The position numbers and the translations under genes were made by a program. The notes under the pieces are model-generated. The model searched no databases, had not been told where the DNA came from, and saw only the letters and a list, made by a program, of their open reading frames with translations. This document shows, in pieces, positions 5,006-41,770 of a stretch of 64,000 bases of DNA. Within the stretch, counting starts at the first letter, position 1. Every line of letters begins with the position of its first letter. Origin of the DNA: an uncultured Gammaproteobacteria bacterium (GTDB lineage Bacteria; Pseudomonadota; Gammaproteobacteria; CAWCPV01); contig CAWCPV010000004.1 in assembly GCA_963797555.1 (NCBI GenBank), forward strand, positions 288,001 to 352,000. The letters are read 5' to 3'.

Positions 5006-6519
5006 GGTTCTTACCGGAATCGTGTGGGTAGATATGCTTACGCTGCGGCAGCCTCTGCCTGAGGTCTGACACAAGATCGTGTGTTGAACGGCGAGGCCGG
5101 CAAGTGGGCCAGGTTGCCCGCGATGAGGTAGGCGATGGTGATGAGCGAGTGCGTGGTGCGGTAGCCCCGGGCGCGGGCTTTGGCGGCCTGGATGAGGGAG
5201 TTGATGCCCTCGGCGCGGCCGTTGGTGAGGCCGGAGTCGAACGCGGCGAGCACACCGTCCCAGTGGTCTTTCAGGGTAGTGGCGAGGTGTTTCATGGGTT
5301 GCAGGCGGCTACGCCGTGCCCAGCTATACCAGCGCGTGAGCGCGGTCTCGGCCTGCTCGAGGGTGCTGGCCGTGGCGTAGATATCGCGCAGCGCCTCCTT
5401 GAGGCGCCAGGCGCGGGCGGTCTTGAGCCGGGCGCGGGAGAGCCAGTGAAAGTCGGTGAGCTGCTCCCAGGTCCAGTCGTGGGCGTCTTTGAGCCAGGTC
5501 CAGCGGGTGCCTCTGAGGGCGGGCTCGGTCTTGACCTCCTCGCGGTGCACTGTATCGACGGCCTGGTTGGCGAGCTGGATGACATGGAAGGCATCGAAGC
5601 TCACCGTGGCTTTAGGCAGATGCTTGGTCACCCCGGCGAGATAAGCGGCGGACAGGTCGATGCACACCTGCTCGATGGCCTGCGGGTCGCCCCCGTGCGC
5701 CTGGAGGTCGGCGGCAAAGGCCGCCACGGTGCTCCGGTCGCGGCCCTCGCAGGCGAACAGCAGGCGTTTGCCCGTGAGGTCATGGAACAGGCTGATGTAG
5801 TGCTGCCCACGCCGGGCGGCGGTCTCGTCCAGGCCCACGGCGCGCACCGGGGAGTGGTCCTCCTGGGCGCGGGCCGCCTCCACGTAGTGCTCGAGCACCC
5901 CCCACAGGCGCTCATCGCCCACGCCCAGGTGCCGGGCGACGGTCGCCACCGGCATCGCCTGGCACAGCGTCACCACCAGTGCCTCCATCAGCGCCGTGAA
6001 GCCACTCTGTGCGCGCGCCCACGGCGGCTCGACCTGAGTCGTCTTGCCGCAGCTCTCACAGCGCACTCGCGGCAGATGCGCGTGCAGGTCTGCCCGCGAC
6101 TTAAAGAAGCTCAGGTGCTGCCAGCTGCGCTTGCGGGTATCATGCACCGGCTGGCCTGGCGCTCCGCACGCCGGGCAGGCGAAGCGGCTCCCCTTGGCAA
6201 AGGCCACCTCGAGGTCGATGCGCCCAGCCTCGGGGTCAAAGCGTACGCCGGTGACTTCCCAAGGCGCCGTGAGACCCAGTGCCGTCGTGAATAGATGCGT
6301 TGGCTCCATGGCGCTCCCCCCTTGATGGCCTGTGGATTTGTGGACGAGTCCTGCGGAGCGGCCCGCGTCCCAAGGACCGTGTGGACAACCTCCCGGTTGC
6401 CCACACTCGCGGGCCTCTCGCCCACAACCCCACAGGCCAACCACAAGATGTTGTGATAGACGATTGCTCAGAACGGATGCTACTCGACCACCACGATCCA
6501 CACAATTACCGAAAGAGCC
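5006..6519 (-). mobile_element. Complete ISL3-family element (transposase 6309-5038) with 8-bp TSD TCATTTGG
   Basis: IRs GGCTCTTTCGGTAATTGTGTGG / GGTTCTTACCGGAATCGTGTGG. TSD at 4998-5005 and 6520-6527. Zn-finger CPACG...CESCG, GLDET, CIDLS, FDAFHV, AEGIN. Confidence 0.96.
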
Positions 6520-7435: not shown

Positions 7436-7804
7436 ATGAAAATACCACACGACAAGATTGATTTCGATGAGTGGATGGTGCTCGCACGTTCCGACCCCGA
7501 CGAGTTTGAGAGGAGGCGTCGAATCCTGATCGAGAAGACCATCTCCCGTGCTTCGGCGCGTTCTCAGCCTCGGCTACGGTGCCTACAGTGGCGCATTGAC
7601 ATGGAGCGCCACCGCGCGCGGACCCCCTTGGCTGCCTGTCTGCGCCTCTCATCGATGATGTGGGACTCGGTGGTCGGGGAGTCGGGGTTGCTCCACGCTC
7701 TCGATGCTTTTCGCAAAGGTAATCTTACCGCCACTCGCTGCCCGGGCGCCGGCAGCGACAATCATGGTATTCCCACGACACCCTCCGCGTCGAGACAGTT
7801 GTAG
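7436..7804 (+). CDS. DUF3135-like protein
   Basis: DFDEW..LARSDPDEFE..R..LIE..I...RLRCLQWRIDMER....PL.AC..LS.MMWDS pattern. Confidence 0.8.
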   Translation: MKIPHDKIDFDEWMVLARSDPDEFERRRRILIEKTISRASARSQPRLRCLQWRIDMERHRARTPLAACLRLSSMMWDSVVGESGLLHALDAFRKGNLTATRCPGAGSDNHGIPTTPSASRQL

Positions 7805-29313: not shown

Positions 29314-29390
29314 GGGCCTGTAGCTCAGCCGGTCAGAGCGGGGGACTCATAATCCCTTGGTCGCAGGTTCGAATCCTGCCAGGCCCACCA
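29314..29390 (+). tRNA. ileX: tRNA-Ile2 (CAT anticodon, lysidine type)
   Basis: Cloverleaf GGGCCTG/CAGGCCC, anticodon loop CTCATAA, TTCGAAT T-loop, encoded CCA. Position after rpoD is typical of Ile2. Confidence 0.9.
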
Positions 29391-29646: not shown

Positions 29647-29880
29647 TCACTGCCCGAACAGCGCCTCGTTCATCCGGCCGAGCGCTTCCGCCTTGTGCTG
29701 GTCCGACAGGTGGGCGTAGCGCTTCACCATCTGGAGGGTCTGGTGGCCCAGCACGTCGGCGATGGTCAGCATGTCCGCGCCGCTCATGGCGAGGTAGCCC
29801 GCGGCGGTGTGGCGCAGGTCGTGGAAGCGGAAGTCCCGAATGTCCGCTCGTTTGAGCGCAGTCTCCCAGGGTGTGCGCAG
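29647..29880 (-). pseudogene. Tyrosine recombinase/integrase C-terminal fragment
   Basis: FRFHDLRHT, LGHQT..M..RYAHL (H-R-H-Y catalytic residues). N-terminus is missing. Confidence 0.9.
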
Positions 29881-30170
29881 GTCGTCGTGGAATATGAAGT
29901 GCTGGTGGAAGAACCACACCGCACCGAGCAGCGAGTGCATGCACGCCTCGCCAACGTTCGAGAGCGGAAGGAATGGTTTCGTTGTTCCCCGGAACAGGCC
30001 CTTGAGATACAGAGCACGGTTGGCGGTTTAGCCATCTTCGGGGACTATAACGGGCGAATCGTCAGAAAGGTCGAGGAGCTCCGTAGACAGCAAGAAACGG
30101 AGATTCACCGCCAGCATCAGCGGCAAGAACAAGAGAAGAGAGAACCCTATCGTTGCAAAACCTTTCTGAT
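29881..30170 (+). pseudogene. T5orf172/GIY-YIG-like domain fragment
   Basis: VVEYEVLVEEPHRTEQRVHARLANVRERKEWFRC matches the E..vH..L......EWF motif. Confidence 0.7.
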
Positions 30171-30415
30171 CATGCCGCTTTCTGCAGGGCCTGCAGATAA
30201 TGCAACAGGTCGTGCTGGACGGCTGAATTGGCGCTCATCGACAGGGTCAATCGACCTTGTGGACGGATCAGGCGACCGGCGCGCTGGATGAGCCGGCAGC
30301 GCAGCGTATTGAGACGGGCGAAGTCCCACAATGCGGGCCGTTTCTGCGAGACACGGCGGGGTAGTGGACGCGCTATCATCTGAAGCTCCCGGCTGAGGTT
30401 GTGGGCGAGCAGTGT
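30170..30415 (-). pseudogene. IS1380-like transposase C-terminal fragment
   Basis: LAHNLSRELQM...TLRCRLIQRAGRLIRPQGRLTL. Confidence 0.7.
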
Positions 30416-30538: not shown

Positions 30539-32054
30539 GGCTCTTTCGGTAATTGTGTGGATCGTGGTGGTCGAGTAGCATCCGTTCTGAGCAATCGTCT
30601 ATCACAACATCTTGTGGTTGGGCCTGTGGGGTTGTGGGCGAGAGGCCCGCGAGTGTGGGCAACCGGGAGGTTGTCCACACGGTCCTTGGGACGCGGGCCG
30701 CTCCGCAGGACTCGTCCACAAATCCACAGGCCATCAAGGGGGGAGCGCCATGGAGCCAACGCATCTATTCACGACGGCACTGGGTCTCACGGCGCCTTGG
30801 GAAGTCACCGGCGTACGCTTTGACCCCGAGGCTGGGCGCATCGACCTCGAGGTGGCCTTTGCCAAGGGGAGCCGCTTCGCCTGCCCGGCGTGCGGAGCGC
30901 CAGGCCAGCCGGTGCATGATACCCGCAAGCGCAGCTGGCAGCACCTGAGCTTCTTTAAGTCACGGGCAGACCTGCACGCGCATCTGCCGCGAGTGCGCTG
31001 TGAGAGCTGCGGCAAGACGACTCAGGTCGAGCCGCCGTGGGCGCGCGCACAGAGTGGCTTCACGGCGCTGATGGAGGCACTGGTGGTGACGCTGTGCCAG
31101 GCGATGCCGGTGGCGACCGTCGCCCGGCACCTGGGCGTGGGCGATGAGCGCCTGTGGGGGGTGCTCGAGCACTACGTGGAGGCGGCCCGCGCCCAGGAGG
31201 ACCACTCCCCGGTGCGCGCCGTGGGCCTGGACGAGACCGCCGCCCGGCGTGGGCAGCACTACATCAGCCTGTTCCATGACCTCACGGGCAAACGCCTGCT
31301 GTTCGCCTGCGAGGGCCGCGACCAGAGCACCGTGGCGGCCTTTGCCGCCGACCTCCAGGCGCACGGGGGCGACCCGCAGGCCATCGAGCAGGTGTGCATC
31401 GACCTGTCCGCCGCTTATCTCGCCGGGGTGACCAAGCATCTGCCTAAAGCCACGGTGAGCTTCGATGCCTTCCATGTCATCCAGCTCGCCAACCAGGCCG
31501 TCGATACAGTGCGCCGCGAGGAGGTCAAGACCGAGCCCGCCCTCAGAGGCACCCGCTGGACCTGGCTCAAAGACGCCCACGACTGGACCTGGGAGCAGCT
31601 CACCGACTTTCACTGGCTCTCCCGCGCCCGGCTCAAGACCGCCCGTGCCTGGCGCCTCAAGGAGGCGCTGCGCGATATCTACGCCACGGCCAGCACCCTC
31701 GAGCAGGCCGAGACCGCGCTCACGCGCTGGTATAGCTGGGCACGGCGTAGCCGCCTGCAACCCATGAAGCACCTCGCTGCCACTCTGAAAGACCACTGGG
31801 ACGGTGTGCTCGCCGCGTTCGACTCCGGCCTCACCAACGGCCGCGCCGAGGGCATCAACTCCCTCATCCAGGCCGCCAAAGCCCGCGCCCGGGGCTACCG
31901 CACCACGCACTCGCTCATCACCATCGCCTACCTCATCGCGGGCAACCTGGCCCACTTGCCGGCCTCGCCGTTCAACACACGATCTTGTGTCAGACCTCAG
32001 GCAGAGGCTGCCGCAGCGTAAGGCATATCTACCCACACGATTCCGGTAAGAACC
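30539..32054 (+). mobile_element. Complete ISL3 element (transposase 30750-32021), near-identical to 5006-6519; no TSD
   Basis: Same IRs as the first copy. Flanks CTGTTCAT and ACAAAAAG differ. Confidence 0.95.
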
Positions 32055-32422: not shown

Positions 32423-34095
32423 CTATTGATCGTCAGCGATGACGACCTGGTACGAGTATCCCTGTTCCGTCAGGAAGAGCTTGCGGTGGTGGGCAAACTC
32501 CTCTTCGCGCGTGTCACGCGAGACGAGGGTGAAGAAGTGCGCCGCGCGGCCGTCGCCCTTGGGCCGCAGGATGCGACCGAGCCGCTGGGCCTCTTCCTGG
32601 CGTGAACCGAACATGCCCGACACCTGGATGAGCAGGTCGGCGTCTGGGAGGTCGATCGCGAAGTTCCCCACCTTGGAGAGCACGATGCAGCGCAACTCGT
32701 TACGGCGGAATCGATCGATAGATCTGCTCGCGTTCGGCCTGCGGTGTCTTACCCGTGACCAGTGGCGCGTCGAGCTCCTTCGCGATGGCCTCGACCTGGG
32801 CGAGGTACTCGCCGATGATGAGCACCCGACCGTTAGTGTGCTGCTCCAGCAGTCGACGGAGTCGAGACCTCTTGGCCGGGTTCTCCGCGGCGATCCGGAA
32901 CTGCGAGCGTCTGTCCGCGAGGGCGTACTCCATCCGGCGCTCCGCACTCATGGCCACACGCTCCTCGACGCAGGTCGCGCTCGCAATCCAGGCCTGATGT
33001 TCGAGGTCCTTCCAGGGCACGTCGAATCGCTTGGGTCCGATTAGGGCGAATACATCTGCCTCGCGGCCATCTTCTCTCACCAGCGTGGCCGTCAGCCCCA
33101 GCCGCCGGCGCGCTTGCAGGTCGGCCGTGGCGCGGAACACCGGAGCCGGCAGCAAGTGGACCTCATCGTAGACGATGAGTCCCCAGGAGCGTGCTCGGAA
33201 CAGCTCGAGGTGAGGGAACTCACCCTCGCGATGCGCGCGCCAGGTCAGGATCTGGTAGGTGGTCAGCGTCACCGGCCCGGTGTTCTTCTGCTCCCCCGTG
33301 TACTCGGCGATCTCGTCCGGCCGCAGCGTGGTCTTGTCGCAGATCTCACGCCGCCACTGCTTGACCGAGGTCAGGCTGGTAGTGAGCACGAGCGTCGTCT
33401 GACCGACCATCTCCATGGCGGCGAGGCCGACGATCGTCTTGCCCGCCCCACAAGGGAGCACGACCACGCCGCTGCCGCCCCGCTCGGAGCCCGCCACGAA
33501 GAACGACTCGGCCGCCTGTCGCTGGTACTCGCGCACCACGAACGGCGTGCCGGACGCCATGCGCTCCCGGAAAAGCTATCGTGAGCCGGTCTCCGCTCAC
33601 GTATCCGGCCAGATCGTCGGCGGGGTATCCAGCCGCAACCAATGCCTGCTTGAGCAAACCTCGCTGTCCTGGATCGACGTGGAAGCTCGTCGCATCGGCG
33701 CGGTTCACGAGGTACGGTCCAGCCGCTCGATCGCGGTGCAAAAGCTCGGCTGTCGCCTCGTCTGCGCAGGCGCAGCGCAGAAGATCGCCATCGCGGGTGA
33801 TGACCACGCGGCCATAGCGCGCGGCCAGGTCGACGACCTCCTGCTCGACGCTGGCGGGCACCGGGTATCGCGCGTGCTCCTTCAGGGCTGCCACCACCTT
33901 CTCGGCAGGCAGGCCTGCTGCCCGGGCGTTCCAGATGGACAGCGGTGTGAGACGATAGGTGTGGACGTGCTCGGGGCTCTTCACGAGCTCCGCGAACGGA
34001 GCGAGCGCCGCCCTGGCCTCCTCGGCCCGCGGCGCGTGGACCTCCAAGAGGACGCTGCAGTCGCTCTGGACGATCAGGGCGTTGTCGGAGGACAC
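32423..34095 (-). CDS. Bacterial XPB/Rad25/Ssl2-family DNA helicase (frameshifts near 33570 and 32715)
   Basis: LIVQSD..VLLEV, FAELVKSPEHVHTYRLTPLSIWNA, VLPCGAGKT, IVYDEVH, GLTAT, QRLGRILRPK. Confidence 0.92.
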
Positions 34096-34105
34096 GGCCG
34101 TTCGG

Positions 34106-36016
34106 TCAGGCCTCGGCTGGCTGAGACGTCACTTCCCCGGATGAGGCCACGCGCCGGTTTCTCGTCGGCCGGGCCTCGCCCATGGCCAAGAGGTAACCGA
34201 GCTCCCGCAGGGCGCGCTTGAACGCCGCCTCCGAGGACGCCGGCACTACCAGGTGCCGTTCCCCGGCTCGCATGCAGTGCTTGCGCGTCCGCGAGTCGTT
34301 GGCGATGAGCGCGGCGAGCGCGGGATCGGCGCATTCGATCAAGCGAGCGAGGCCGCGGGTCCTGGACCTTCGCGCTTCGATCCGAAACGTCCTCGATCAA
34401 GCGGGCGACCGTATGGGGGATCGGGGCACCGCTCCGCGCCGCGAGGAACTCCCGGATCTCGGTCACCGGGCGGCCCTCTTCGATCGCCGCGAGCAGCTTG
34501 CCGGCGTCGAGCCGCCAGACGAGGTCCGAGACCTTGGTCGCGTAGGCGTCCAGGGCGAGCCGATCGCCCGGCTCCAACTCCGCGCCGATGGCTGCGATTT
34601 CCAGATTGGGCAGCACTCGCAGCACAGGCTTCACCTCGACCGGCGCCGGCTCGTATCCCGACTCGGCGCCGAGGCAGTGAGCGCCGAGAGGCGTGACGCG
34701 GAAGTACATCAGTCCGTCGTAGCGGCTGAAGTACACCAGTTCGTCCGTGCCCCAGAGGCCGCCGTAGTTGTAGCGCGCTCCAGCGGGAGGAATGAGCGCG
34801 ACATCGACGAGCCCGAGGCTCGCGGTATATTCGAGCAAGAGGCACAAGAGGTAGCGTTCATCGAGGATATATTTGCCATTCTCGTACCCGAGGGAGCCGT
34901 ACTGCAGCTCGCCGATGTAAAGATTCCAGGCGTTGCGGGTCACCGAGAAGTCGTTGCCCGAGGCGCGCAGGAAGCGCAAGAACTCGTCGGTGGAGATCCA
35001 GGCGCGGACTGGACATTCGGCCAAGGCGTCGGCCACTACAGCCCGCCGTGACGAGAGCGCAGTGAGCCCTTGCTTGCCCTTTCCGGTCTGACCCTTGACG
35101 CAGTCGATGCGCGAAAGCTCATCGAGGAGGGTCGTGTTCACCCACTTCGTCCAGACCGTTCGGAGAGTCTCGGCAGCCGGTTCGGAAAGCGCCTTTCGTC
35201 CCGCCTTGGTGAGTTGCAGCTTCGACCCCGAGAGCTGGGCAAGCCCGCCCGCCTGGACAAGGAGGGGCCAGGCGAAGGCGCGAATCGGTCCCGCATTCTC
35301 GTCGTGGCCACTTGTTCGTGACCGGGAGGCGCGGGTAGTAGTCGCCGCCTTCGAGGATGTTGGTGAGCGCATCGATGGTCGCGGACGAGGCACGCCGCGT
35401 CTTGTCGCTCACCGCGACCTTGCCGGCATCGACCAATCGCAAGATGGAGAGCAGCTCCCGCTGGGCGGTGCGCTCGGTTTCGCGCACCGTGAGAGTCACG
35501 TGCTCGGTGCCCTTCTCCTGGGTCTTTGTCTCCGAATTCCAGCGCGTGTACGGCAGACCGTAGGCAGCCGGAAGCTCTGCGAGGGTCTCGATCTTCGCCT
35601 CGACCGGCTGCGGCACGAACGCCTTGAGCCGCTCCTTGATGTCCGTCGGCATCACGCCGTTGCCGTAGAAGAAGAAGCCCAGCGCCGAGGGGCGGCGGTG
35701 GTGCCCGTACTTGTCGGTCGTTCCCCAGTCCGGATCTCGCCCGTACTTGGCGCGAAACCGAGCGGCGAGGAACTGGGTCGAGTTCGAACGGACGACCTCC
35801 GCCACTGCCGCCCGCTGTAGCTCGTCCAGGCCTTGCCAATCCGCCTCGCCGCTCTCCCTCGAGATGCCGCACGATCACGGCGACGAGGTCGGCTTTCCGC
35901 GTGGGCGGCTTCTCCTCGGTCAGCGCTACCAGCTTCTTGAGGTCGTCCGAGTTCATGACCTCGTTCAGGGCAATTTCGAGGGTGGGGATTCCGCCGTCGG
36001 CCTGGTATCGCTTCAT
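34106..36016 (-). CDS. XPB-associated Helicase_C_3-type protein (about 3 frameshifts)
   Basis: C-terminal YFRVTPLG, RVLPNLEI, WRLDAGKLLAAIEEG...IREFLAARSGAPIPHTV, EAAFKRALRELGYL. Confidence 0.75.
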
Positions 36017-36350
36017 GCTGTCTCCGTGGTCTGCGCGGAGCGCTGCTGCTTGGCAGCGCGGCGGGCTTCCTTCTTCCGTTGCTCGTGGCGAGCGCGCTCC
36101 TCGATGGACATCACGGTGTCAGGGGCGGTCTTGCCGAATCGCTTACGGTAGAGCTCCTCGATGAACTGCGGCAGGGGCAGCTTCCATGGCTCCTGCTTGT
36201 GGTTGTCGAGCTTGCCGAGCTTTGCCGGGTTCATCCCGACTCCCGCGCCATCTGGACCTGGGCGTGGGACAGGTGGTGGCGCTTGCGCACGTCGATCCAC
36301 GCCTGCAGCTTCTGGTTCGGCTTCTTGGCCTTGCTGGCCATCGCAGTCAT
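36013..36350 (-). CDS. Small conserved-type hypothetical protein (frameshift near 36240)
   Basis: WIDVRKRHHLSHAQVQMARE|GMNPAKLGKLDNHKQEPWKLPLPQFIEELY. ATGA overlaps at both ends. Confidence 0.75.
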
Positions 36351-37580
36351 CTCTCCTCTCGGCGGTCTTCCCAGGCCGTCTTTGCCCGCACCTCGTCGAT
36401 CAGGAAGCGCACGCCTTGGTTGTCCCAGGGGTCGAACCAGAGCATCCGGTCGAAGACGCGCTCGGCTTCCTCGAACCGCGTGAGCCGCCACAGGCACAAG
36501 CCGTACCCGTGCATGCAACGCAGGAACGGCCGGTTGTCGATATGCCCCCACGGAAGCAGGCCATCGAAGGCCGGGCCGAGCGACTGCTCGCCGATGCGGA
36601 CGCCGACCTCGTAATGCCGGATCGCCTCCTCGGCCCTGTCCCAGGCAAGGTTGCCGAGGTGTGCGTGGGCGTCCAGACAACGGAGGTCAGCGTGGCAAAG
36701 GTCCATCAGGATCTTGCACGCAGCAGCGCCATTGCCGGCTTCCTTGAGGTCGTTAGACTCGCAGATCGGGTCGGAGTCGAAGTCGTCCGGGTCGCGGCCC
36801 GGCACGATCTGTTCCATCTCGAATGCCCGCCTGGGTCCGCGGGCAATGATGGCCTTGGCCCACTCCTCGATCGGCTCCCCGTCCTCGCCCCAGTAGTGCT
36901 CGTCGGGGTCCATAGACCCCGGTCTTTGAATCTCGAGTAGCACGAGTCCCAGCGCCTGCACGTCGAGTCGTGCGGACTCGATCTCGCCGGACAGGTAAGG
37001 GTGAGCGGCGTAGCTCCACTGCTCGTGCGGCTTGACCACGGCGATCTCGCCGGGAACGACGTCCCAGAGATGACTGGCACGAAGAGTGATGACGCGATCG
37101 CTTCCCAGGACCCGGCAGCGCGCTGCTTTCTCCTTGACCGACAGCACGACAAGATCGACTGGGCCGCTCAGGTCGAGATCGGTTGCCGCGACCTTGTGGC
37201 GGCGCTTGCGGCGGGCGGTCGTCACGACCTCCGGAGGCCATGGATCGAGGCCGAGCCACTTGCGGTAGGCGGCAACGTAGCGAGCCCCCGCTCAATCGTT
37301 TAGGGAGCACGACATCGGAGGCCGCCACGACGTGCTCAGACCCGTCCTCGCGCCGACACCTTGCCGTCAACCCGCGCCGCTCGTTTCCGTCGTAGTCGAA
37401 TTCGACAACGGAGACCGGCGCACCCATGACAAACGCATCGCAGGGCACGGCGACCTCGTCTTCGAATACCTGCAGGAACCCCCCCAGTTTCTCGTCGTCA
37501 CCGTAGGCGTCCAGTGTGATCTCCTCGATGAGCCAATCCAGATCGGCCAGATCCTGGACCTCACTGTTCGTCTTTTTCAT
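36347..37580 (-). CDS. CcbP-like N-terminal domain plus TPR-like C-terminal domain (frameshift near 37285)
   Basis: LIEEITLDAYGDDE...F.....AVP; C-terminal DAHAHLGN, LPWGHIDNRPFLRC.HG, DNQGVRF. Confidence 0.7.
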
Positions 37581-38936
37581 TCGTTGTCTCTGCGCTGGCG
37601 TCCACTCCACCGCGCCTTGGCGCGCTCCAAGAAGGACGGCTCGTCGCTCGGACCAGCCCCGGCCACCAGAGCCTCGAAGCCCGACATGAAGCCCGTCTTG
37701 CGCTGGTGCTCAGCGCGCACCTGGCTCACGGTCTTCTCGGCGGTCAGGCCCGCCCGCTCGAAGCAGCGCTTGGCCCTTTCGAAGTTCGCCAGCGCGGCGT
37801 CGTAGTGCTTGCTCTTCTTGGCGTTGGCGATCCACATGCCCTGCGCCCGCCACAGACGGGCCGCGAGATCGGGATGGGTCCTGTCGAGCTTCTTGGCCAC
37901 GGGCTCGGCGGCATAGTGGCTCAAGCCTTCCAGCGTCTGATCCGGGGTCCGGCGCACGAGGTCGGCGAGCCGGTCCACCTCCTTCGTCGCCAGGAGGAAA
38001 TCCATGATGGAAGGGACGTCCGCTCCCTGGCTGCCTCGATGGCCTTGTCGTGCCACTCGGTCCGCTCGGCCTTGGGCACGAACTTCATGAGCTCGGGCGT
38101 ATGTGTACTTGCTCGGGTGCTTGCGGTAATCGGCCCAGGCGGCGTCGACGCCTCGTTGCTGCGCCCGAGCTTGGTCAGAAGCTCGCGCTCGAGCTTAGCC
38201 AGGTCGTGGCCGGCCATCGACCGACGCGGTGCCTTCTTGTGGAGATCGATCCCCGTTCCACCCAGCCGAGAGCCTCTTCTGGTTTGCGTCGGGTGACCCG
38301 AGCAGCGTGGCGATGGCGTGGCAATCCTGACCGGTGAGCCCGGTTTCATCGGCGAGGGTGACGTAGGCATCGACGTTCTTCTGCGCGAGGTAGAGCGCGC
38401 GCAATGCCTCGCCCCAGCGTCGGCGGACACGCTCCGGGCGACCTTCGAACGTGCCATCCGCCTTGGGTGTCGCCTTCGCCGCACCGTCGAATCTCGCCCG
38501 GACCTGCTTCACCAGCGCGGCGAGCCCGGCCTTGTCGAGGACCTTGGCAGCGTCTTTTTCGAGGCGGTAGCAGAAGCCGTAGGGGTCATCATCTATCCAG
38601 GCGAGCAAGCGCGACGCGGTTTCGTCTGGGTTGGCACCGTCTGCCTGGCGGGCCTCGATCCAGCCGCGGTACAGATCGGCGACGAACTGCCCGAACCTGC
38701 CGCTCGAATCGTCCAGCTCCTTCTATCTTGGCGTAGCAGCCGGCGAGGAACGTCTCGTACAGGGTGACGGCCCGGGCGGGGTCACTGCTGGTGAACTTGT
38801 CGATCTTGGCGGCAACCGCGACGGGACGGGTCACAAACGAGAAGCACGCGCGGTCGGAGATGAAGGCTCCAGCGTTGAGCGCACGCTCGATCTCTTGCTC
38901 CATCGGATCCGCCTTGGCGCGGGACTTTCGGATCAT
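37577..38936 (-). CDS. DUF6880-like alpha-helical protein (several frameshifts)
   Basis: LDDSSG.FG.F, W...DPYG, and C-terminal AARLWRA....NAKKSKHYDAA..F, H.RKTGF. Confidence 0.65.
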
Positions 38937-39148
38937 CGATCCTTCTCCCTCCGTTTGCAGGAGACCTTGCTGAGGACGGACTCCTGAATCCCGTTGGCCG
39001 AAAGCTCCCGTTCCAGCATCTCCACGGCAGAGTCCTGGATGATCGTGTCGAGATCGGCGCAACGAATCCGGATCTGTCGGTGAAGCTCCTCCTCCATGCG
39101 AATGTAGACCTTACTTCTCGTCGTTCTGCTCGGGCACCTCTCCCTCAT
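38933..39148 (-). CDS. Ribbon-helix-helix-type regulator
   Basis: KVYIRMEEELHRQIRIRCADLDTIIQD..VEMLERELS fits a beta-alpha-alpha RHH pattern. First gene of the operon. Confidence 0.65.
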   Translation of the reverse strand: MRERCPSRTTRSKVYIRMEEELHRQIRIRCADLDTIIQDSAVEMLERELSANGIQESVLSKVSCKRREKDR

Positions 39149-39168
39149 GTCCAGGGTGCAAAGAGGGC

Positions 39169-39234
39169 TCACGTATACGTGATCAGGACATCGCCCGTCA
39201 ACGCCGTATGTCGGACACCCACGCCGTATGTCGG
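39169..39234 (-). promoter_or_regulatory. Sigma-70-like promoter with operator-like repeats
   Basis: TTGACG-N18-TATACG. Perfect palindrome TCACGTATACGTGA at 39169-39182. Direct repeat ACGCCGTATGTCGG at 39201 and 39221. Confidence 0.65.
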
Positions 39235-39418
39235 CCAACGCGCCCCAGCTCGTCATGTGCGGTGTTCGCTGTCAGGGGGTCGTAACCAGTCGAAATACCC
39301 TTGAGCTTCGTCCCCAGCGACGCCTGAACGTGCTCAACCTCGGGACGGGTCCGAGGGGCAAACGAGCAGGCGAAGATGAGCACGACGACGAAACGAGAGG
39401 AACCGCCGGGCCAGACAC

Positions 39419-39541: not shown

Positions 39542-39676
39542 TGGTGTCTGACCCTAACCTAAGACCCTAACCTAATGGTAACCTAATGGTGTCTGACCCT
39601 AACCTAAGGTGTCCTAACCTAAGGTGTCTGACCCTAACCTAAGGTGTCTGACCCTAACCTAATGACCCTAACCTAA
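39542..39676 (+). repeat. Irregular tandem array of 8 units, consensus (T)GGTGTCTGACCCTAACCTAA
   Basis: Unit lengths 21,13,11,21,15,20,20,14; all end in TAACCTAA. Confidence 0.97.
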
Positions 39677-41770
39677 TGGCGCTTACTTAGGCGCGCTTAG
39701 TTTAAGCGAAACCCCGAATAGCCGGCTAAGTCGACCACGGATGCGTTCTATGCGTTCTATGGTAAGGGCTTGGTCAGTTTCTCTCGGGCACGCTTCTCTA
39801 ATGGATAGAGAAAGAATCCGTTTCGGTGCGTGGCCGTGGCGCTGATGAGCGCGGTCCATGCGGCCGCGGCCAGTGGTTGAGCCCGCTTCGAGCCAGTTGG
39901 CGGCACGATAGCAGGTCCCGCGGTAGTGGTGCTCCTCGACCAAGCTTTCGAGCAGTAGAGGGCGGATGTGGTAGGCCTCCGTCCAGTCGGTGAGGATCTG
40001 CCGGGCGGTCAGTGCGAGCACGTGGCTTGCGAGGTTTTCACCTGGACCCAGGGCAGAATCAGGAAGCGGCTTTGGTTGACGATATGTTGTAGGCGCTGTT
40101 TTCTTATCGGCTCATTCCAGCCGATCCAGCGGTCGCGTGCGCGCATGCGCCAGGCGGGGCTGGAGTATTGCAGCGCCCCGAGCATCTGGGCCGGCTCCCC
40201 GCTCTGGATGAGATAGCGCAGGTGAGCCCCGAAGGGGGTCCGGTAGCCGAGGTAGTGGTGGTGGGCGATGAGGCTACGCCACTCGGTGTGTTGCTCGGGG
40301 GTATGGGCGATCACCAGACGCAGCGGTTGCAGGGTGGCCAGGGCGGTGGTGATCGGGGTGCGGGGTGTGGCGGGTGGCTCGGGGGTGCGGGTGGCGGCGC
40401 CAGTGGGCCGGCCTGCGGCCTTTTTGGGCAAACACAGCTCTGCGCGCTGATGCAGCCGCTCGAGCAGATCCCGGCATTCGCGGGTCTTGAGCTGCCCGCT
40501 CGGGCGCTCCCATCGGAGCAGCTCGCACACGGTGGCGGCCAGCTCCTGGCGGCTGAGCCTGGGGTAGCGGGCGACGAGCTGTGCGATGAGGCGCAGCTCC
40601 TGGGGGCTGAAGCTTCGTCCAGCGACCACGACCGGCTCAGCTGGTGCGTTGGGCGATGAGCGCACGGCGGGCTTCGGCGCGCGGTTGGGTGAGCAGGGGA
40701 TGGGGCTTGGGTCGTCGTTTGACCGCCCGCGGCTCGCACCGCCCGGGACGCTGCCCCACGCGCTGGGCGGCCAAGGTGGCGAGGATCGCCTCGATGAGGG
40801 CGCGCGGTAAGGGCTGTGGCCACCAGGGCACGCCTTGGGTGAGCAGTAGCTGCAGGGCCGCACTGAAGCTCAAGGTGCGCGGAGCGAGGCCGTGCTGATC
40901 GGCGCTCTTGGCCAGTAAAGCGCGGATCAAGTGGTAGGCGAGCACATGCACGGCCATCTCCTTCTCGACCATCGCCGGGGTCTGGCCGCGCAGCACCTCC
41001 ATACCGAGCACCTGCTTGATGGCGCGCAGGTCGAGCTCACAGTGCCAGCGCGTCTGGTAGAGGGTGCGCAGCGCCTCGGCACGAAACATCTGAGGGTCGA
41101 GCAGTGTGGTGACCAGGGTCTGGTGCCCGACCTTGAGCTCGCGGATGCGAAGCTGCTGCGGCAGGCGCGCATAGAGGCTCTCATCGAGCCAATCGGGGCG
41201 CTTGGGCTTCTCCCACACGGCGATGTGATCGTCTCGGCCGAGCGGCTCGCCGCAGCGAAAATCCGTCTTGCGCCGTTGGTGCTGGGGCAGTACCACATCG
41301 ACCTCCCGCTCGGCGAATAAGGCAATCATGAAGTACGAGGCGTAGTAGCAATCGCCGAGCATCACCTCCCCAGGGGAGAACCGATCGAGCAGCGCGCGCA
41401 GCAAACTCCAGCTCGCTGTTGTTCTTGCCTGTAACGCCACCGCTTGCATGCGCCAACAGCGCGCCGCTGCTCCAGCAGAACACACCGAGCAGCCGGGCGA
41501 TGGGAAATCCGAGGCCCGGCTGCTGGCCCCGCTGCTGCGGAAACCGCGCCTGATTGGCTGCAGTGTCGGCCATGCTCACCGTGGTGCCATCGACGATCCT
41601 GACCCGCCGCCCGCACCACAGCGGTCCACGCGCGTGCAGCTTCTCGGCCACGATTTGGATCAACGCCAGGATGAACTCGTGGCAGAGGCGCTGACGCGCT
41701 CGGCAATAAGCCCCCGTGCGGCCTGAGATCGCCCCCTCGCCCTGCATCTGCCGGCAGAGCGCTCAACTAG
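39675..41770 (-). mobile_element. IS4-family element, 5' end truncated: transposase (~41770-40637, frameshifted) plus downstream DUF4338 gene
   Basis: AYCRARQRL, IVDGTT, GFPIARL, LGDCYY, LYQTRWHCELDLRAIK (YREK-like). IS4-type IR AATGGCGCTTACTTAG at 39675. Confidence 0.85.
39683..40629 (-). CDS. DUF4338 (DruA-like) protein, frameshift near 40035
   Basis: SRQELAATVCELLRW, HHYLGY...GAHLRYL, RDRWIGW, NQSRFLILPWV, NLASHVL, GTCYRAANW..G.T.GRGR.D. Confidence 0.85.

Follow-up and report, generated by a model that had tools for sequence, protein, structure and literature searches.

We found an operon of six co-directional genes on the minus strand (39148 to 32423) of a 64,000-nucleotide (nt) stretch of DNA, hereafter the window, from an uncultured Gammaproteobacteria bacterium (assembly GCA_963797555.1, contig CAWCPV010000004.1, positions 288,001 to 352,000). 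The operon joins an XPB/ERCC3-type helicase to a protein whose predicted fold resembles p52/Tfb2, the partner of XPB in TFIIH. Its genes, in order, encode an RHH regulator, a DUF6880 protein (D), a 'cytoplasmic/TPR' protein (M), a small basic protein (S), a helicase-associated protein (H) and XPB. The same gene order is found in metagenome-assembled genomes (MAGs) of several phyla, with 60-90% protein identity. The overall picture is of an H-XPB core that is conserved and of an RHH-D-M(-S) front end that is often present but separable, with decay and transfer both frequent. We tentatively propose, at a little short of even confidence, that this is a mobile XPB-p52-like translocase module acting as a conflict (anti-phage or anti-plasmid) system. 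Bacterial XPB operons are a known kind; what this one adds is its p52-like partner and its RHH-DUF6880-CcbP/TPR front end.

We investigated the XPB gene. Its N-terminal piece in the window matches Helicase_C_3 of Pfam with 120.7 bits, and further pieces match ResIII (61.3 bits) and ERCC3_RAD25_C (116.5 bits). Against NF045503, the NCBIfam model 'DNA repair helicase XPB', the pieces score 455.8, 179.6 and 161.7 bits, each below the cut-off of 610, because frameshifts split the gene. The intact homolog in locus L013 reaches 831.3 bits, and the operon XPB is clearly assigned to this family by its sequence. The motifs GAGKT (Walker A), DEVH and VREDGRE are read in the translation of 32700-33560. 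The RED motif of XPB is named in an excerpt of PMC3353954. The protein aligns over its full length with human XPB (14-558 to 25-572), N-terminal domain included. Among PDB sequences it matches yeast Rad25 with E 2.5e-92 and the more distant archaeal XPB with 1e-42, and it thus appears far closer to the eukaryotic than to the archaeal enzyme. As a member of this family, it would be an ATP-driven translocase on double-strand DNA with 3'-5' helicase activity.

H is the other half of the core. The window piece matches Helicase_C_3 with 27.2 bits, under the cut-off of 34.2; this is the only family that Pfam reports for H, and XPB shares it. Members of the H family, which comprises 2074 clusters at 50% identity (E <= 0.001), are named 'helicase-associated domain-containing protein' by NCBI. 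A structure model of H (pLDDT 92.9, pTM 0.87) was compared with the PDB using Foldseek. All 23 matches with E <= 0.001 come from TFIIH- or p52-containing entries, and the top matches are TFIIH p52 (8ebs_D, E 1.7e-7). From the entry titles and the usual chain assignments, we take the matched chains to be p52/Tfb2 or XPB. In VIA-align, p52 aligns with model residues 139-554 at Z 13-14 over 210-252 residues, and the N-terminal half of p52 (6tru_C) aligns with residues 140-452 at Z 10.3 (root-mean-square deviation 3.9, 156 residues aligned). The p52 chains align up to residue 549-554, and the N-terminal part of XPB aligns with residues 458-617 at Z ~13.5; the next unrelated rows have Z <= 5.8. The match between the C-terminal end of H and the N-terminal part of XPB is also seen by hhalign, which pairs H 487-609 with XPB 37-166 (E 5.6e-5). 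The model thus depicts H as a winged-helix array followed by a 'clutch' domain with the fold of the XPB N-terminal domain, a p52/Tfb2-like arrangement. The preliminary description, which spoke of a Helicase_C_3-type protein, missed this predicted likeness. In TFIIH, according to an excerpt of Greber 2019, XPB is recruited through a pseudo-symmetric dimer of its N-terminal domain with the p52 clutch, two domains of the same fold. H looks like p52 in its fold but, judged by sequence, is not a member of the p52 family, and a search of PDB sequences with a single H sequence returned nothing. Neither Pfam nor the fold indicated a Bax1-like, WYL-type or nuclease partner for XPB. No fusion of H with D, M, S or XPB was found in four long H-family proteins (P0234, P0317, P0329 and P0335).

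We collected homologous loci with two seeds. M, searched against the GTDB species genomes, yielded 22 loci. In six (L004, L006, L013, L014, L015 and L022), D (whole or in part), M, H and XPB follow one another in the same order. The contig of L020 stops inside M after RHH-D-M, and in L016 remnants of H and XPB of 20 and 47 residues lie behind M. The M-seeded loci belong to Acidobacteriota, Binatia, Myxococcota-type bacteria, Alpha-, Beta- and Gammaproteobacteria, Spirochaetaceae, Thermotogota and Planctomycetota. M identity ranges from 43 to 82%, and M proteins that are 74-82% identical occur in MAGs of Acidobacteriota, Binatia, Myxococcota-type bacteria, Gamma- and Betaproteobacteria and Spirochaetaceae. 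With H as the seed, metagenome contigs yielded 80 loci, and the following counts use those with enough flanking DNA. XPB immediately follows H in 40 of 48 loci (>=1800 nt of flank), in agreement with the earlier expectation that a bacterial XPB usually has a Helicase_C_3 protein beside it. M lies directly upstream of H in 16 of 38 loci (>=1750 nt of flank) and is missing there in the other 22, D and M are both upstream in 12 of 28 (>=3200 nt of flank), and S is present in 7 of 38. The gene combination is therefore conserved in other genomes (6/22 M-seeded and 12/28 H-seeded loci), and the concern of the preliminary description that it might not be has lapsed. On the other hand, M was found in only 2 of 61 class relatives and H in 3 of 401 genomes of the phylum, the host genome counted. 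The operon is sporadic in relatives yet shows high identity across phyla, and from its sequences it appears to be horizontally mobile.

The front end was characterised gene by gene. The RHH assignment of the preliminary description stands on the L006 homolog, which passes the cut-off of RHH_10 (PF23807) with 35.3 bits against 27; the window's own copy has 16.2 bits (E 0.013). The naming of D as DUF6880-like is likewise borne out, as PF21810 (cut-off 27.3) is exceeded by the C-terminal piece of the window (37577-38056, 33.4 bits) and by the intact D of L013 (98.7 bits). For D there is no further lead, and its profile found nothing useful among PDB sequences. The description of M as CcbP-like with TPRs agrees at the level of fold only, in a model of an intact homolog (pLDDT 82.6). 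Its N-domain resembles CcbP (3urg, E 1.6e-3, TM-score 0.65; 2k2v_A, Z 10.4, 105 residues aligned), its middle domain is a beta-barrel and its C-domain consists of three TPRs, which align with TPR domains at Z ~12. The N-terminal 120 residues of M have no Pfam match, and PF11535, the family of the calcium-binding protein CcbP, is present in 18% of one neighbouring Atlas cluster. The M family comprises at least 3406 clusters at 90% identity, and the model has no match in BFVD at E <= 0.001. S carries a stretch that, as we read its sequence, looks like a helix-turn-helix, and it has no match in Pfam, PHROG, PADLOC or PDB sequences. In PHROGs, matches of the operon are limited to RHH and the helicase core, with none for D, M, S or H. 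Pfam reports no WYL family on the window pieces or on the intact homologs, just as no WYL motif had been seen before. A complex prediction for D and M gave a score of 0.01 against a mark of 0.32, which speaks neither for nor against binding. We also observed two loci (L015:269-2065 and L008:7392-8882) in which a DUF6880 protein without its middle part is fused in frame to M; these fusions look like decay intermediates of the front module.

Two 17-nt direct repeats upstream of the RHH gene are a candidate operator for RHH. One repeat copy persists with one mismatch in a partial operon copy on host contig C3, and the repeat sequence showed no conservation among the other loci. The single promoter claimed in the preliminary description was not recovered, as a simple sigma-70 scan found no minus-strand site upstream of the RHH gene. 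The G+C content of the operon (0.65-0.67) is the same as that of its flanks.

All six genes announced in the preliminary description are visible as open reading frame (ORF) pieces between 32423 and 39148, and every gene longer than RHH shifts frame relative to intact homologs. D, M, S, H and XPB together show 12-15 non-triplet indels in 6.8 kb, where positions were taken from DNA alignment with intact homologs and three of the 15, all in D, are only possible. The indels of D lie at 38722 (+1), 38299-98 (+2) and 38096 (+1), with the possible single-base gaps at 38254, 38149 and 38028. M has one at 37278 (+1) and a compensating pair at 36937 (+1) and 36908 (-1), and S lacks one base behind 36239. 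In H they are found at 35848 (-2), 35307 (+1) and 34359 (+1), and in XPB at 33570 (+1) and 32717 (+1). This density of ~1.8/kb is ~40 times a rough estimate for core genes. The genes for dnaG, rpoD, ctpA, an ABC1 kinase, tsaD and a methyltransferase are whole within the window, and dnaE, uvrA and secA are single-frame genes elsewhere in the host genome. The genes for mfd (host C3:509514-512313) and for a second DnaE-like protein (C14:279113-281666) are each split into two frames, which represents a low background of frame errors, or pseudogenes, outside the operon. The genes rpoB and rpoC, wanted as further frameshift controls, were not found in the 84.6%-complete assembly.

We consider that the indels are probably consensus errors of long-read assembly and not decay. 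In sequencing run X4, six of the seven aligned contigs are at least 99% alike to the window. Over 32682-32885, an X4 contig differs by one letter and by one gap, so that 203 letters cover 204 positions; over 36159-36356, an X4 contig has no other letter and carries a G that the window lacks behind 36239, as do contigs of runs X1 and X2. The window indel is therefore absent from near-identical X4 contigs at both covered sites (32717 and 36239), although only these 2 of the 12-15 sites could be checked and X4 may be a sister strain. Three X4 contigs over indel-free stretches show no gap. In the relatives from runs X1-X3, the extra letters at 35306/7, 37285 and 38097 are likewise absent, as they should be if the genes work. 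No in-frame stop was found in 2046 reference-frame codons of the operon, nor any large deletion. The ratio of nonsynonymous to synonymous substitutions between window and homologs is 0.08-0.27, the same range as among the intact homologs themselves; it points to purifying selection on the operon and is unable to date a recent inactivation. Each of the three marsh runs X1-X3 contains 71-103 aligned contigs with many close variants of the element, and such a multi-variant mobile region would make read mis-recruitment in long-read polishing likely. These marsh runs hold relatives rather than this strain, and the largest fraction of the operon's words in any sequencing run is 0.18. A comparison of insertion sequence (IS) copies over 21.3 kb counted 225 mismatches and 20 gap openings, a result that does not decide the error model.

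Alternatively, this copy might be dead, the frameshifts being real and the operon a decaying pseudogene array in an IS-flooded genome. This is the less likely account, and it keeps some weight. The 12-15 indels in 6.8 kb stand against roughly one split gene in the ~25 kb of core genes checked. The two other operon copies in the host are truncated: one, 94% identical, retains the 3' end of XPB (C14:17486-18380) and is interrupted by three frame changes and a TGA, and the other retains RHH and the 5' end of the DUF6880 gene (C3:415347-416340, 91% identical). The ISL3 element has ~45 full or partial copies over 20 contigs, many of them 98-99.8% identical, and decayed operon versions occur elsewhere (L004, L016 and L064-66). 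Against a dead copy stand the X4 contigs, the open reference frame, the unchanged substitution ratio, and the crowd of close variants in which long-read polishing errs. If consensus errors are the cause, mobile, multi-variant regions of long-read MAGs can mimic pseudogene arrays, which is a warning for annotation.

The coupling of the genes bears on whether front end and core belong together. The four ATGA stop/start overlaps of the preliminary description were each recovered in the minus-strand reading (RHH/D 38936-38933, D/M 37580-37577, M/S 36350-36347 and S/H 36016-36013). H ends with a TGA at 34108-34106, and XPB starts with a GTG at 34095. The homologous operon of L006 is also coupled by ATGA (6283-6286 and 7641-7644), so the coupling is more than chance. 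On the other hand, M occurs without H or XPB on the available contig DNA in 14 of the 22 M-seeded loci, some of these on contigs of only ~2 kb, full H was present in none of the five M-only genomes tested, and D-H-XPB forms without M exist (L061 and L086). The accessory genes can thus be parted from the H-XPB core, and the multi-subunit machine of the preliminary description is unproven. RHH-DUF6880-M and (S)-H-XPB might even be two independent units that merely adjoin, with no physical or functional tie. That more than half of the H loci have no M upstream, and that M and H are 77 nt apart and not overlapped in L013-type operons, would suit such a pair of units. We nevertheless find it rather doubtful: order and orientation are fixed wherever both units co-occur, and the overlaps continue through S into H in both the window and L006. 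The D-H-XPB forms, together with a 51-residue remnant of M directly before H in L064-66, argue for a common unit that decays. As a separate observation on H, in L114:2165-7866 and L090:739-6355 it directly follows genes for an SNF2(DUF3670) helicase and a SWIM zinc-finger protein, with no XPB downstream; an SNF2(DUF3670) gene is also found downstream of the operon in L013. SNF2 motors, too, may have partners of the H type.

We compared the operon with known XPB systems. The closest likeness is to XPB-p52(-p8) of eukaryotic TFIIH (Ssl2-Tfb2-Tfb5), which has the same XPB domain order including the N-terminal domain. Its p52 and H both have a winged-helix array and then a domain with the XPB N-terminal-domain fold, a likeness at fold level only. 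TFIIH differs in that the operon has no counterparts of p8, p44, p34, p62 or XPD, and H differs from p52 in an extra N-terminal region (1-140). The bacterial genes are, moreover, mobile and sporadic. Mycobacterial and actinobacterial XPB (Rv0861c) is likewise a bacterial XPB with the eukaryote-type N-terminal domain. The helicase-associated gene adjacent to Rv0861c is presumably Rv0862c, and we know of no RHH-DUF6880-M module beside an actinobacterial XPB. In vitro, the M. tuberculosis enzyme acts as a 3'-5' helicase and also anneals DNA, as stated in the excerpt of PMC3353954. In archaea, XPB is encoded with Bax1, a dedicated partner that modulates its ATPase (PMC13024598, in excerpt). Unlike H, which shows no nuclease fold and resembles p52, Bax1 is a nuclease and binds to the thumb and HD2 region.

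The excerpt of PMC3353954 also reports that no bacterial p52 homolog had been found as of 2012, and that bacterial XPB therefore probably works alone. An XPB that almost always lies next to a p52-like gene gives the opposite picture. The role of bacterial XPB is still called 'elusive' in the excerpted text of a 2026 review (PMC13024598), and in the literature searched we found nothing on DUF6880, on an RHH-D-M-S-H-XPB operon or on a bacterial p52. The pair would make XPB-p52 regulation testable in a simple two-protein bacterial system, and it bears on the origin of the XPB-p52 pair of TFIIH. One may go further and suppose that XPB and the p52-like protein are the DNA-opening 'mini-TFIIH' engine of an undescribed, widely transferred bacterial immune system and that the eukaryotic XPB-p52 pair descends from such a module; the operon XPB, which has the N-terminal domain, is much nearer to the eukaryotic than to the archaeal enzyme. 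RHH-DUF6880-CcbP/TPR-S would then be the regulator and sensor set, and the origin of XPB-p52 would not lie in the archaeal XPB-Bax1 pair. We offer this joint proposal as speculation, with considerable doubt.

We then weighed what the operon might do. Full operons have AbiEi-AbiEii, TacA-GNAT, RHH-ParE and HigB-HTH pairs around them, as well as DndB-family (DNA-sulfur-modification-associated) and NOV_C-domain proteins. H-XPB without D-M is accompanied by Xre-RES, PIN, Fic, TIR-CHAT-STAND, Uma2, a YhcG nuclease, an HsdR fragment, UvrD and RecQ. In one such locus (L106:777-9549), a Wadjet JetB/C/D set (DUF4194/MksE-like, SbcC-like JetC and JetD) lies immediately upstream of H-XPB in the same direction. 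M alone is found near TOTE primase-helicase, Schlafen/AlbA_2, RhuM, a PLD-domain protein and AAA_14-DUF4143. We favour a conflict role because of the sporadic distribution, the cross-phylum similarity, the modular front end and this company of defence genes, toxin-antitoxin pairs and ISs. In such a system, the C-terminal clutch of H would grip the homologous N-terminal domain of XPB, in keeping with the adjacency of the two genes in 40 of 48 loci, and tune its ATPase as p52 does in TFIIH, and the winged-helix array of H would bind DNA. RHH would repress its own operon through the direct repeats. The helical D, together with M and S, may be adaptors or sensors that are coupled in expression and target or trigger the motor. 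Since no effector domain was found, the action of the system would have to come from translocation, from DNA opening or from host factors, and not from a nuclease within the operon. It would thus be a candidate conflict system with unusual, non-nuclease components.

Several points weigh against a conflict module. To our knowledge, no phenotype is known for any member of the operon, and none of its six proteins showed an effector domain, be it a nuclease, a toxin or one of another kind. The p52 likeness of H is confined to the fold: H has no match to the Tfb2 family of Pfam, and its profile found the human XPB N-terminal domain among PDB sequences with E 0.09 and no p52. XPB is missing behind H in 8 of 48 loci, twice where H stands behind the SNF2-SWIM pair, and the many M-only loci further loosen the unit. 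The truncated host copies, the IS-ridden genome and the small number of checkable indel sites, all given above, leave room for real indels in this copy. PADLOC (v2.0.0, 2023), a comparison proposed in the preliminary description, has no model for RHH, D, M, S or H, with window pieces or with intact homologs, and XPB matches only its generic helicase models. The helicase systems in PADLOC (Pbe with PbeA, Dpd with DpdF, Hma with HmaA and type IV CRISPR with DinG) have in common with the operon the superfamily 2 helicase core and a defence-island-like setting. The match of PbeA to XPB (81.8 bits) covers the generic helicase core only, and no partner genes of these systems are present.

The operon might instead serve DNA repair or transcription as an accessory 'mini-TFIIH', a role loosely proposed for mycobacterial XPB, opening DNA where lesions or stalled complexes occur, with D, M and S as recruiters. 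This is consistent with an XPB whose domain layout is orthologous to that of eukaryotic XPB, with its p52-like partner and with the lack of an effector or toxin domain; M. tuberculosis XPB, moreover, both unwinds and anneals DNA in vitro in the excerpted account of PMC3353954. We judge it unlikely, as the genes are sporadic (3/401 and 2/61 genomes) and highly identical across phyla, they keep company with toxin-antitoxin, IS and defence genes and not with repair genes, and the host already has uvrA and mfd. Very unlikely is a service to the mobile element itself (replication, transfer or counter-defence of a transposon, integrative and conjugative element or plasmid): transposases flank several operons (rve_3 on both sides in L006, IS66 in L059, Y2 in L048, ISL3 and IS4 in the window), the host genome holds at least three operon copies or remnants, and the acidic CcbP-like domain of M could conceivably mimic a ligand, but no integrase, relaxase or replication gene is consistently linked in the loci examined, H was not found in the IMG/VR viral contigs searched, PHROGs offer no match for D, M, S or H, and the transposases look like bystanders because they belong to different families.

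The operon and its surroundings are listed in Table 1. It sits between rpoD/tRNA-Met and ctpA, with the ISL3 element on one side and, on the other, an ORF with a DruA domain next to a split IS4 transposase. The preliminary description had placed it in a tRNA island. The position between rpoD/tRNA-Met and ctpA, among IS elements, agrees with this, but the window contains no integrase, no att-like repeat and no second copy of the tRNA-Met 3' end.

Table 1. Features of the operon and its flanks, in window coordinates
Feature	Position	Strand	Remarks
RHH regulator gene	38933..39148	-	71 codons from ATG 39148; stop overlaps the D start (ATGA)
D, DUF6880 gene	37577..38936	-	~453 aa if intact; >=3, <=6 indels
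M, 'cytoplasmic/TPR' gene	36347..37580	-	~410 aa; CcbP-like acidic N-domain, beta-barrel middle, 3-TPR C-domain (predicted)
S, small basic protein gene	36013..36350	-	~110 aa; HTH-looking stretch
H, helicase-associated, p52/Tfb2-like gene	34106..36016	-	~635 aa; Helicase_C_3-type
X, XPB/ERCC3-type SF2 helicase gene	32423..34095	-	~555 aa; GAGKT, DEVH, RED
Two 17-nt direct repeats, 20 nt apart	39201..39237		~55-90 nt upstream of the RHH start
ISL3-family insertion sequence	30539..32054	+	DDE_Tnp_ISL3 244 bits
DruA/DUF4338 ORF and split IS4-type DDE transposase	40009..41747	-	PF14236 101.4 bits, DDE_Tnp_1 38.8 bits
tRNA-Met (CAT)	29314..29390	+	ARAGORN; core-genome edge of the variable region

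Some minor observations concern the surroundings. The ORF with the Druantia DruA domain and the frame-split IS4 transposase directly next to it have, as a pair, weak DNA copies on several contigs. Just after tRNA-Met, a remnant ORF on the plus strand (29695-30291) encodes a MUG113/T5orf172 (GIY-YIG-like) domain. It is followed by a 278-nt repeat that is found on five other contigs and that, on contig C3, adjoins a 40-nt copy of the tRNA 3' half. At 39543-39677, a 20-nt motif (GGTGTCTGACCCTAACCTAA) is present in five tandem copies; the ~76-nt unit from this region recurs with 80-87% identity on contigs C2, C4 and C7 and looks like a small repeat element. Elsewhere in the host genome (C4:511393-516981), a frame of 1928 residues has two tandem UvrA-family matches and is either a double-length UvrA or two fused genes.

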